64,000 nt of DNA, from the sequence record PQ249397. The stretch is one strand, 5' to 3'. The notes beneath the pieces were generated by a model. The model was not told the DNA's origin. It was given only the letters and a program-made list of their open reading frames with translations, and searched no databases. The translations under genes were made by a program, and so were the position numbers. The DNA is from Escherichia phage Pu-Krd-SF3. Below, in pieces: positions 34,332 to 35,576 of the stretch; positions within the stretch are counted from its first letter, which is position 1; each line of letters opens with the position of its first letter.

Positions 34332-34359
34332 AGCCCCGACCGAAAGGTTGGGGCTTTTT
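34332..34359 (+). terminator. Rho-independent terminator
   Basis: agccccgac-cgaaag-gttggggct hairpin followed by tttt. Confidence 0.7.
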
Positions 34360-34397
34360 GGCATAAATAGATGAGTTAATTAACACAGGAAATAACA

Positions 34398-34859
34398 ATG
34401 AAAACTTATGCTCAATTTTTAATGACCGAAGCATCCGCTTCAGATGTTCGCGCTGTAGCAACTGCTGCTATTAAAGCTGGTAAATATTCTTATAAAGATG
34501 CTTCTGACGAATCTCGGTACAAGTTCTATGACGATATGAGAGCTGAAGGCTTTGTGGGTAACTATGTTACCACCGCCTGGAAAAGCCTGGTTGCTACTGG
34601 TGCGGCTTTCGAAAAACCTTCTGGTAAACCTGCTCCTAAGGCTGACCCTAAAGCAGCACAAGAAAAAAATATTGCTAAAGGAATTATCTCTAGGTATGAA
34701 GCAATTCTTAAAGAACTTTTGATAATTAAGACCGAAGGCCAGAAACTTGCGCGAGCTTATAGTTTCAAAGATAATCCACATGCTCATGACCTAGAGTATG
34801 TTGAAGACCTCCAAAAAATCATCAAAGACCGCATTTGGTCTGCTAAGCAAATTAAATAA
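34398..34859 (+). CDS. CTS-bearing protein (candidate injected internal protein)
   Basis: 153 aa; N-terminus MKTYAQFLMTEA is an IP-type capsid-targeting leader; own RBS. Confidence 0.5.
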   Translation: MKTYAQFLMTEASASDVRAVATAAIKAGKYSYKDASDESRYKFYDDMRAEGFVGNYVTTAWKSLVATGAAFEKPSGKPAPKADPKAAQEKNIAKGIISRYEAILKELLIIKTEGQKLARAYSFKDNPHAHDLEYVEDLQKIIKDRIWSAKQIK

Positions 34860-34866
34860 TATTTTT

Positions 34867-34894
34867 AGCCCCGACAGAAAGGTTGGGGCTTTTT
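34867..34894 (+). terminator. Rho-independent terminator (near-identical copy of 34332-34359)
   Basis: agccccgac-agaaag-gttggggct hairpin followed by tttt. Confidence 0.7.
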
Positions 34895-34977
34895 AGTTTG
34901 AATCGCTCGGAGAATGCTGTTACATATAACAACGTGATAAATAATTAATAACCAATAAATTATTTCAAGGATTTTAA

Positions 34978-35544
34978 ATGAAAACCTACGCCGAATTTTT
35001 AACCGAAGCAGCAAAATTACCATCTGAAGCAGATCTTACTAAAGTATTCTTCCACTTGGACCCAAAAGACCGTGGCGATTTTCTTAAGTGGAAAGCTAAA
35101 GCTATTGAAATGTATAACATTGATAATAGTTCTTTTACGATGAGTCAAGAAAATAATTTCAATAAAGCGTTTTTCAAAATTTCTAAGAAACTGGCATCTG
35201 GCAAACAGGTTCTTCCTAAATCTGCCTTAGCTACTCCTGAACGTGCACCTGTCAAAATTTCTAAGAATATGTTCGACACTAAAAAATATGTTAATGCTTT
35301 GAATAAAGCTCTTGATGCATTGGATGATGCAAAGAAGGCAGCCCGTGATCTTCAAGACGTGTACACCGATTTTGATCGCAAAACTAAAGGTTCTATTTCA
35401 AATAGCGAACGCAATAGTGTAAGTGTTTATTCCGATAGCCTTGATGTTCTTGGCGATGCGTATACTGAAATTAAAAATCGTATTAACACCGCATCTAAGC
35501 TAAAAGCTGCCGCAGAAGCTATAATAACTAAACTAAGCAAATAA
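34978..35544 (+). CDS. CTS-bearing protein (candidate injected internal protein)
   Basis: 188 aa; N-terminus MKTYAEFLTEA is an IP-type capsid-targeting leader. Confidence 0.5.
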   Translation: MKTYAEFLTEAAKLPSEADLTKVFFHLDPKDRGDFLKWKAKAIEMYNIDNSSFTMSQENNFNKAFFKISKKLASGKQVLPKSALATPERAPVKISKNMFDTKKYVNALNKALDALDDAKKAARDLQDVYTDFDRKTKGSISNSERNSVSVYSDSLDVLGDAYTEIKNRINTASKLKAAAEAIITKLSK

Positions 35545-35551
35545 TTTTAAA

Positions 35552-35576
35552 TCCCTATCTAAATGATAGGGCTTTT
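35552..35576 (+). terminator. Rho-independent terminator
   Basis: ccctatc-taaat-gataggg hairpin followed by cttttt. Confidence 0.6.

Follow-up and report, generated by a model that had tools for sequence, protein, structure and literature searches.

What are the two small genes that follow each other between the rnaC operon and e.8 in Escherichia phage Pu-Krd-SF3, and why are they set apart by terminators that are almost copies of one another? We followed up this locus in a stretch of 64,000 nucleotides of the phage (sequence record PQ249397), referred to here as the window. An initial annotation had read the two open reading frames (ORFs), which we call gene 1 and gene 2, as relatives in kind of the T4 internal proteins (IPs), bearing a capsid-targeting sequence (CTS) leader and lying in cassettes bounded by duplicated terminators. 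Our analysis points the same way: the products of both genes are probably packaged into the head, processed by the gp21 protease and injected, most likely as inhibitors of type IV restriction, and their genes appear to be carried in cassettes exchanged at terminators.

A megablast search with positions 34000-35800 returned 771 phage records. The top match is Escherichia phage Pu-Krd-SF4 (99.9% identity) and almost all other records are Tequatrovirus and close relatives; by its sequence, the phage is a T4-like Tequatrovirus.

Two genes with a capsid-targeting leader

Both ORFs were found where they had first been placed (Table 1) and start with the T4 leader, which they match at Y4, F7, L8 and the Glu-Ala bond. 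The gene 1 product starts with MKTYAQFLMTEA (it begins MKTYAQF) and the gene 2 product with MKTYAEFLTEA, both of the type MKT(Y/F)xEF(I/L)xE with aromatic residues at positions 4 and 7. In T4, residues 4 and 7 are reported to determine targeting and residues 8 and 10 processing (PMC9026906); gp21 cleavage follows L/I-x-E. Both proteins, and even homologues with no more than 21-31% identity, keep the matching residues.

The site of the proposed gp21 cut after the glutamate differs between the two genes. Gene 2 has a canonical leader (Y4, F7, L8-T9-E10↓A11), while gene 1 of the window offers M-T-E↓A, which is non-canonical. Most other gene 1 alleles read FLNEAVLNE↓A, with two canonical sites. 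As the short FLMTE form is also found on a 72%-identical gene 1 allele (P0004), it appears to be maintained. The mature proteins show no clear depletion of internal L/I-x-E (P 0.35-0.68), a comparison without power as only about one site is expected. Within the window, the DNA coding for the leader is repeated at the starts of five ORFs (0 expected), and a CTS-type leader stands on seven ORFs, starting at 31273, 31606, 34398, 34978, 39728, 40489 and 40811.

Table 1. Features of the two-gene locus, of its flanks and of related genes, with positions in the window
Feature	Position	Strand	Remarks
T1, intrinsic terminator of tRNA/rnaD/rnaC operon	34332..34359	+	left edge of gene 1 cassette; hairpin -22 kcal/mol, z -4.1
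GGGCTTTTTGGCAT, 14-nt junction sequence	34351..34364	+	left end of two-gene indel relative to T4
CATAAATA, late-promoter-like	34362..34369	+	7/8 match to T4 TATAAATA; 28 nt before gene 1 ATG
Gene 1	34398..34859	+	153 aa ORF; phrog_2280
Gene 1 leader M1-E11	34398-34430	+	
Gene 1 three-helix N-domain, type A (predicted)	about 34431-34607	+	
Gene 1 Pro/Lys/Ala-rich linker	about 34608-34661	+	
Gene 1 C-terminal helical hairpin (predicted)	about 34662-34856	+	
T2, terminator of gene 1	34867..34894	+	joint between cassettes; hairpin -16.3 kcal/mol, z about -4
GATAAATA, late-promoter-like	34936..34943	+	7/8 match; 34 nt before gene 2 ATG
Gene 2	34978..35544	+	188 aa ORF; phrog_2280
Gene 2 leader M1-E10	34978-35007	+	L-T-E↓A site
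Gene 2 N-domain, type B (predicted)	about 35008-35202	+	
Gene 2 disordered linker (predicted)	about 35203-35274	+	
Gene 2 C-terminal helical hairpin (predicted)	about 35275-35541	+	
T3, terminator of gene 2	35553..35577	+	right end of indel relative to T4; weaker hairpin, -10.5 kcal/mol
rnaD/rnaC homologous region	34017..34280 (approximate)	+	homologous to T4 stable RNAs by T4 annotation and sequence comparison; directly after tRNA-Arg
Early-promoter-like site	35713-35741	+	upstream of e.8 orthologue; in downstream conserved flank
e.8 orthologue	35785-36048	+	in downstream conserved flank (35713..36048); then e.6 and following genes
57B/Acb1	30739-31194	+	first in + strand order leading to the locus
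ipI-locus internal-protein genes	31273-31545, 31606-31914	+	phrog_7673, phrog_2667, both 'internal head protein'
gp22 scaffold (T4_CASP)	162-971	-	domain match
gp21 protease (Peptidase_S77)	1002-1640	-	E 1.5e-111
gp20 portal	2289-3875	-	domain match

Genes 1 and 2 are real and under purifying selection. Pairwise dN/dS (ratio of non-synonymous to synonymous rates) lies at 0.05-0.17 over the whole of gene 1 (up to 0.24 for the N-terminal half alone) and at 0.10-0.21 over gene 2; each gene has a Shine-Dalgarno sequence 7-8 nt upstream. The predicted mature products have a mass of 15.8 kDa and an isoelectric point (pI) of 9.4 for gene 1, and 19.8 kDa and pI 9.5 for gene 2, the latter resembling IPIII* (20.4 kDa, pI 9.65). 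Both genes are thus small, basic in product and dispensable, lying in a hypervariable accessory slot (empty in T4 and PST, variable elsewhere). An antisense ORF of 115 aa (34440-34787, - strand) inside gene 1 was treated as spurious, because the codon-level purifying selection fits the + frame.

By tblastn, gene 1 has matches in 511 phage records (56-100% identity), among them partial N-domain matches to Klebsiella phages, and gene 2 in 164, nearly all at least 95% identical. The frequencies of the gene combinations are rough: as 80% or more of the two-gene megablast query is covered in about 127 records, most of the 164 carry both genes, and roughly 340 records have gene 1 without gene 2. The homologue annotations that we saw all read 'hypothetical' or 'uncharacterized', among them RB14ORF136, RB27_136, RB69ORF148c/149c and bas42_0248. 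Both proteins match phrog_2280 (function unknown) over their full length, and Pfam holds no family for either. The 'IpIV' of PST was rejected as a relative of gene 1: it has the length of most gene 1 alleles (157 aa), yet is unrelated.

Three proteins of metagenome and assembly contigs carry parts of these genes. In P0010 the gene 1 N-domain, and in P0021 (13 member sequences) the middle portion of gene 2, runs on in frame into the C-terminal portion of NudE, which points to natural deletions of about 3.5-4.3 kb removing e.8 through e.2. The third, P0009, joins the last helix of gene 1 to an unrelated N-terminus.

AlphaFold2 modelled gene 1 with a predicted local distance difference test (pLDDT) score of 73.6 and gene 2 with 59.9, which is low confidence. 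The predicted layout is common to both: a disordered leader, a three-helix N-domain, a disordered Pro/Lys/Ala-rich linker and a long helical hairpin. For gene 1, no Foldseek match in PDB had an E-value below 0.4, and the PDB and BFVD fold searches found no significant match beyond the proteins' own uncharacterised family and one distant protein of a T4-like Yersinia phage. Compared directly by BLASTP and shallow hhalign, the two proteins share the leader and a weak last-helix match, at a probability of 2-23%.

More distant relatives connect them. Among 1.84 billion representatives searched, a single distant relative of gene 2 came to light: P0023, at 31% identity and with the same type of leader. 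By tblastn, P0023 in turn matches 350 phage records of several genera. The C-domain of the protein in KMB19 (Karamvirus) aligns collinearly to gene 1 (E 3e-5) and to gene 2 (E 0.003). A hidden Markov model of the gene 2 superfamily, trimmed of the leader, gives gene 1 family members scores of 13-29 bits, whereas none of 300 shuffles exceeds 5.9 bits. Genes 1 and 2 are therefore distant paralogues with a common linker and C-terminal hairpin and with different N-domains. The type A N-domain has a GKYSYKD motif and is also present in Jiaodavirus KP1079 at 58% identity; type B has an RGDF..K motif and is present in P0023, IME08, KMB19 and ATCCa. Since the Jiaodavirus slot holds type A in KP1079 and type B in ATCCa, the domains have been exchanged.

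Terminators, promoters and the states of the slot

Each of the two genes has its own terminator, as originally described. T1 and T2 are strong hairpins followed by T-tracts. The 28 nt of T1, AGCCCCGACCGAAAGGTTGGGGCTTTTT, are identical in T4 (28/28), and T2 is the near-exact copy that it had been taken for: the two agree at 27/28 nt with a single C-to-A mismatch in the loop, and 0/100 dinucleotide shuffles matched at three or fewer mismatches. The stem of T3 (CCCTATC/GATAGGG) differs from that of T1, and the T-tract tail is shared. Over GGGCTTTTTGGCAT the tails of T1 and T3 are exactly the same (2 copies versus 0.01 expected), and all three terminators have GGGCTTTTT in common; these repeats make up family D6.

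Four states of the slot were found among about 20 loci inspected by eye. In state 0 (T4, PST), T1 is followed by the e.8 upstream region. State 1 (G2540, G8 (L010) and L012) has T1, gene 1, T2 and then the e.8 upstream region, and state 2 (RB69) has T1, gene 2, T3 and then the e.8 upstream region. State 1+2, with T1, gene 1, T2, gene 2 and T3, is that of the window, ZN18, SA21RB, L013, L014 and L017. In T4, rnaC and T1 are directly followed by GGTATCTAAGCC..., which in the window follows T3. In RB69, the sequence after T1 is AGTTTGAATC..., the very one found after T2 in the two-gene phages. In state 1 genomes T2 equals T1 at 27-28/28 nt (28/28 in G2540). All junctions of the four states fall in the terminator 3' arm and T-tract, GGGGCTTTTT, which bears out the proposal that gene 1 lies between duplicated, recombinogenic sequences.

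In the divergent loci L011, L015 and L016, the local T1 has a different stem (GGCCC...GGGCC) and the terminator that closes the block has the same variant stem. In these IMG/VR contigs (about positions 2980-3600), another terminator, GCCCCGTCTGGGGC, comes after gene 1, and an additional small ORF (MKLLK...) lies between it and that closing copy, an arrangement that looks like a third kind of cassette in the slot. F26 (L008, vB_Eco_F26), which has both genes, contains at 2076-2439 a 350-bp tandem duplication of T3 and the e.8 upstream region enclosing a 40-aa ORF, either a real terminator-bounded event or an assembly artefact. In RB69 (L007, 1801-2363), the gene 2 orthologue is split by a frameshift into ORF149c and ORF148c and is a pseudogene or reflects a sequence error of 2003.

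Exchange has also taken place within gene 1. In a sliding comparison of the window with G2540, identity is at least 95% up to the end of T1 and 52-85% over 34361-34620, which comprises the 5' untranslated region, the leader and the N-domain. From the linker-coding region onwards it does not fall below 87% in the rest of the compared segment, and it is 95-100% as far as about 34819. T1 thus appears as the left edge of an allelic replacement of the gene 1 N-domain, with a mosaic break near 34620.

Because all four presence/absence states exist, at least one exchange between the two cassettes must have taken place, and the terminator is the sole sequence shared there. The comparison identifies the terminators as the probable crossover points between cassettes. 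The simplest route to the stacked state would be unequal crossing-over between the downstream terminator of a gene 1-only phage and T1 of a gene 2-only phage, a route that predicts the arrangement of the window, including why T2 copies T1. Given this copy and the common GGGCTTTTT, unequal homologous recombination between co-infecting phages can add, remove or stack cassettes without disturbing flanking transcription.

When would such cassettes be expressed? In both cases the T-tract of the upstream terminator runs directly into a late-type element. A perfect TATAAATA stands before gene 1 in G8 (which has the identical protein allele), G2540, SA21RB, F26 and ZN18, and the depositors of SA21RB annotated the element as a late promoter; before gene 2, relatives have AATAAATA. 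No early-promoter consensus was found upstream of gene 1 or gene 2. The PeSL-type sigma-70-like early promoter (TTTACW N17 TAYWAT) is absent upstream of both, where there is only xATAAATA. By contrast, the classical T4 ip genes and window ORFs 31273, 31606 and 40811 stand behind GTTTAC... early promoters, often overlapping palindromes. A MotA middle promoter upstream of gene 2 was considered and rejected, as its TGCT box is not conserved in ZN18.

The same slot in IME08 (Dhakavirus), KMB19 (Karamvirus), and KP1079 and ATCCa (Jiaodavirus) contains a terminator, a perfect TATAAATA and a leader gene. The terminator hairpins of these four slots have different stems with compensatory changes. In Mosigvirus loci the leader gene is present with 7/8 variants of TATAAATA. 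Because the terminator/TATAAATA arrangement is kept across genera while the coding sequences diverge almost beyond recognition, we infer that genes 1 and 2 are transcribed late, as prohead assembly requires.

The slot in the window phage can accordingly be described as two single-gene cassettes, each with a late-promoter-like xATAAATA, a leader gene and its own terminator. More generally, the interval from the rnaC-operon terminator to the e.8 promoter appears to be a conserved internal-protein gene slot in Tevenvirinae, a third one besides the ipI and ipII/III loci and conserved across five genera. A probe of its upstream flank (34100-34330) shows 96-99% identity in related loci. The Rfam scan detected tRNAs only, with no match within 34016-35800.

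The + strand at the locus is the direction of T4 early transcription. After the ipI locus it carries the trna.x ORFs, nine tRNAs with a segB-like GIY-YIG ORF, and the rnaD/rnaC region. Both the gp21 prohead protease and the gp22 scaffold core are encoded in the same window.

Several neighbouring features deserve mention. The 57B orthologue (30739-31194) matches Pfam Acb1, an anti-CBASS nuclease (E 2.6e-60), so that an anti-defence gene adjoins the IP genes of the ipI locus. Early-promoter units (GTTTAC...GTGATACTAT, families D1, D3 and D7) occupy 31199-31247, 31538-31586 and 31919-31967, and further ones 35690-35759 and 36071-36120. They precede each ipI-locus gene and e.8 in PeSL-like fashion, in contrast to the units of terminator and late promoter. 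The tRNA cluster (32555-34015) has nine genes (Gln, Leu, Gly, Pro, Ser, Thr, Met(CAT), Tyr and Arg) versus eight in T4. Between tRNA-Tyr and tRNA-Arg lies the segB-like GIY-YIG homing endonuclease ORF; its listed TTG start at 33135 overlaps tRNA-Tyr, and translation probably begins at the internal Met of MHFYLYKITNK. Such an endonuclease could, through gene conversion, aid the spread of adjoining IP cassettes.

Besides genes 1 and 2, CTS-type leaders are found on ORFs 31273-31545 and 31606-31914 of the ipI locus, on 39728-40009, which overlaps the stop of lysozyme e, on 40489-40749, which comes after denV and has the leader MKMYQEFIVEA, and on 40811-41386, the IPIII orthologue. The phage would then have seven candidate internal proteins at four places. 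Around denV the gene order is e-IP-denV-IP-ipIII, versus e-ipIII-ipII-denV in T4.

Proposed role and alternatives

In the mechanism that we propose, both proteins would be produced late in infection and would dock through the leader to the gp22 scaffold core of the prohead. The gp21 protease would then cut the leader off after Glu10 (gene 2) or Glu11 (gene 1), and the basic mature proteins would remain in the head to be injected with the DNA. Once in the cell they would most likely counteract a defence directed at incoming DNA; precedent suggests a variant type IV restriction enzyme of the GmrSD/McrBC type. By analogy with T4, packaging and injection seem quite likely for both proteins. A type IV restriction target is the single most probable role on the same grounds, at somewhat below an even chance.

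The precedent has become a strong one. T4 Ip1, Ip2 and Ip3 each inhibit a distinct GmrSD enzyme and lack homology to each other; in the authors' proposal, variants of the GmrSD system are the targets of all accessory proteins from 'the two Ip loci' (PMC12373910). In addition, the CTS protein Bas37_0260 inhibits McrBC (bioRxiv 10.1101/2025.11.20.689424, preprint). The initial annotation had placed gene 1 and gene 2 beyond the three classic internal proteins, and this agrees with our data: the genes are absent from T4, are not e.x genes, and their mature parts are unrelated to Ip1-3.

Several observations weigh against the role proposed here. The mature parts have no sequence or fold similarity to Ip1, Ip2, Ip3 or solved structures, and the target is a guess by precedent. 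Nevertheless, as Ip1-3 are mutually non-homologous, missing homology to known inhibitors does not bear on function. Our literature searches found no virion proteomics or processing data for any family member, including those of fPS-65, fD1 and fHe-Yen9-01, and the supplements of Silas et al. contain neither the gene 1 nor the gene 2 sequence. The gene 1 leader of the window has Y4 and F7 and then reads L8-M9-T10-E11↓A12, with Met at P3 and so no L/I-x-E, and the promoter of this gene is CATAAATA and not a perfect TATAAATA; with both features, the window allele may be less well expressed or processed. In every genome seen, the element before gene 2 matches at 7/8 positions only. Neither gene shows a dN/dS signal of positive selection. 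Finally, the junctions may be conserved because a small number of ancestral events spread through homology of the flanks, and not because recombination at terminators is frequent.

How else could the two genes be explained? They might encode a modular injected class that occupies the third pan-Tevenvirinae slot, with a swappable N-terminal recognition domain (A/B), a flexible linker and a conserved C-hairpin in a hitherto undescribed late-mode terminator-promoter cassette, aimed at a target other than GmrSD/McrBC; we regard this as unlikely. We also think improbable a purely structural role, in which packaged head-core proteins would neutralise charge, organise DNA or, as has been suggested for IPIII, aid scaffold assembly without inhibiting any defence. 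The mature proteins are indeed basic (pI 9.4-9.5) and predicted to be all-helical with a Lys/Pro/Ala-rich linker, purifying selection without a positive-selection signal would suit such a role, and IPIII mutants show head-assembly aberrations (PMC9026906). All three T4 IPs, IPIII included, nevertheless have anti-GmrSD activity (PMC12373910). Moreover, T4 and PST do without both genes and many phages have one, and a core role predicts neither this presence/absence polymorphism nor the swapping of N-domain alleles. We think it distinctly improbable that the leader is a relic or a recombination handle on unpackaged, cytoplasmic late accessory proteins. The DNA that codes for the leader could be kept as a patch of homology used in gene exchange, and both the departure of the window gene 1 leader from L/I-x-E and the lack of direct virion evidence in our literature searches agree with that idea. 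However, the leader is conserved as protein among homologues of 21-31% identity in five genera while the DNA and the remainder diverge, ten residues of the CTS leader suffice to package foreign proteins in T4 (PMC9026906), and the late-promoter placement fits prohead assembly.

As to the terminators, they might be a passive by-product of one ancient tandem duplication of gene and terminator, the variants having spread by crossovers in the long flanks. The genes are paralogous, so a tandem duplication is plausible, and the same junction sequences in all sampled genomes are compatible with few founding events. The four states nevertheless require exchange between cassettes. The two paralogues can hardly be aligned, yet in G2540 T2 is identical to T1, so that the terminator was copied long after the genes had diverged. 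On its left, the mosaic of gene 1 alleles ends exactly at T1, the further duplication in F26 is bounded by T3 copies, and flanking terminator copies within a genome match each other across lineages with different stems. A passive origin is thus as improbable to us as a relic leader, and we retain the reading of head-packaged, injected internal proteins in cassettes exchanged at terminators.

This reading would make the genes useful in practice. All four functionally tested CTS proteins of T4-like phages (Ip1, Ip2, Ip3 and Bas37_0260) are specific type IV restriction inhibitors, and according to the authors the other internal proteins should correspond to further variants of these enzymes. Both families are present in hundreds of sequenced coliphages of the therapeutic type, under the label 'hypothetical' throughout. 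Their recognition as internal-protein candidates provides concrete genes to test against orphan GmrSD-like systems, for which T4, naturally without both, is a ready recipient in gain-of-function tests.

Comparison with known internal proteins and stem-loop cassettes

Injection of proteins that act before phage gene expression is found outside T4-like phages: phage P1 Dar and the T7 internal core proteins are co-injected with the genome (background in PMC12810830 and PMC8402733). Their packaging signals, assembly pathways and proteins are unrelated to those considered here, and the PDB and BFVD fold searches detected no homology to them.

The T4 internal proteins are much closer. Like them, the products of genes 1 and 2 are small, basic and non-essential, have an N-terminal CTS leader with a Glu-Ala bond, and are encoded in hypervariable slots of the same early-gene arm of a phage encoding gp21 and gp22. 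Unlike them, they have unrelated mature parts (phrog_2280 versus phrog_7673, 2667, 3499 and 5341), in which two predicted domains are joined by a disordered linker. Their packaging is a prediction, their locus is the third one (rnaC-e.8) and not ipI or ipII/III, and they have a late-type element only, without the early promoter of the classical ip genes.

Bas37_0260, described in the HIDEN-SEQ preprint (10.1101/2025.11.20.689424), is likewise an unannotated protein of a T4 relative recognised by the same N-terminal signal. It occupies an ipI-locus slot that T4 fills differently, so that its locus is another one, and it belongs to a different family as far as tested. Its anti-defence activity is experimental, while the role of genes 1 and 2 is proposed by precedent.

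Further CTS-bearing internal proteins are not in themselves new, and in this respect the novelty had been overstated, since the literature already contains both them and the shuffling of stem-loop cassettes. According to PMC12373910 and PMC4122927, which cite it, Repoila 1994 reported further CTS-bearing T-even IPs ('at least 10 reported') and a shuffled IP palette; the gene 1 and gene 2 families may overlap the Ip4-Ip10 numbering of that study.

The second precedent concerns the cassettes. Like the PeSL and PmSL cassettes, the locus has repeated units of stem-loop and promoter that flank small accessory ORFs at exact indel boundaries and offer short homologies for excision or insertion. PeSL were reportedly described in 2010 by Arbiol as mobile regulatory cassettes. 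Comeau 2014 found PeSL and PmSL stem-loop/promoter cassettes at indel boundaries, along with five IP differences between PST and T4, and describes no late-mode version of PeSL (PMC4122927). In the locus studied here, a strong terminator is followed by a late-type TATAAATA element, as opposed to a sigma-70-like early or MotA middle promoter.

Extra internal proteins and cassette shuffling at regulatory stem-loops were thus already known. What this locus appears to add is two unannotated families, forming one modular superfamily, a third slot at rnaC-e.8 in five genera, a version of the regulatory cassette built from terminator and late promoter, and a clean four-state natural series. In this series of 0, 1, 2 and 1+2 cassettes, intrinsic terminators would act as the crossover points at which accessory genes are stacked with their transcription units intact.

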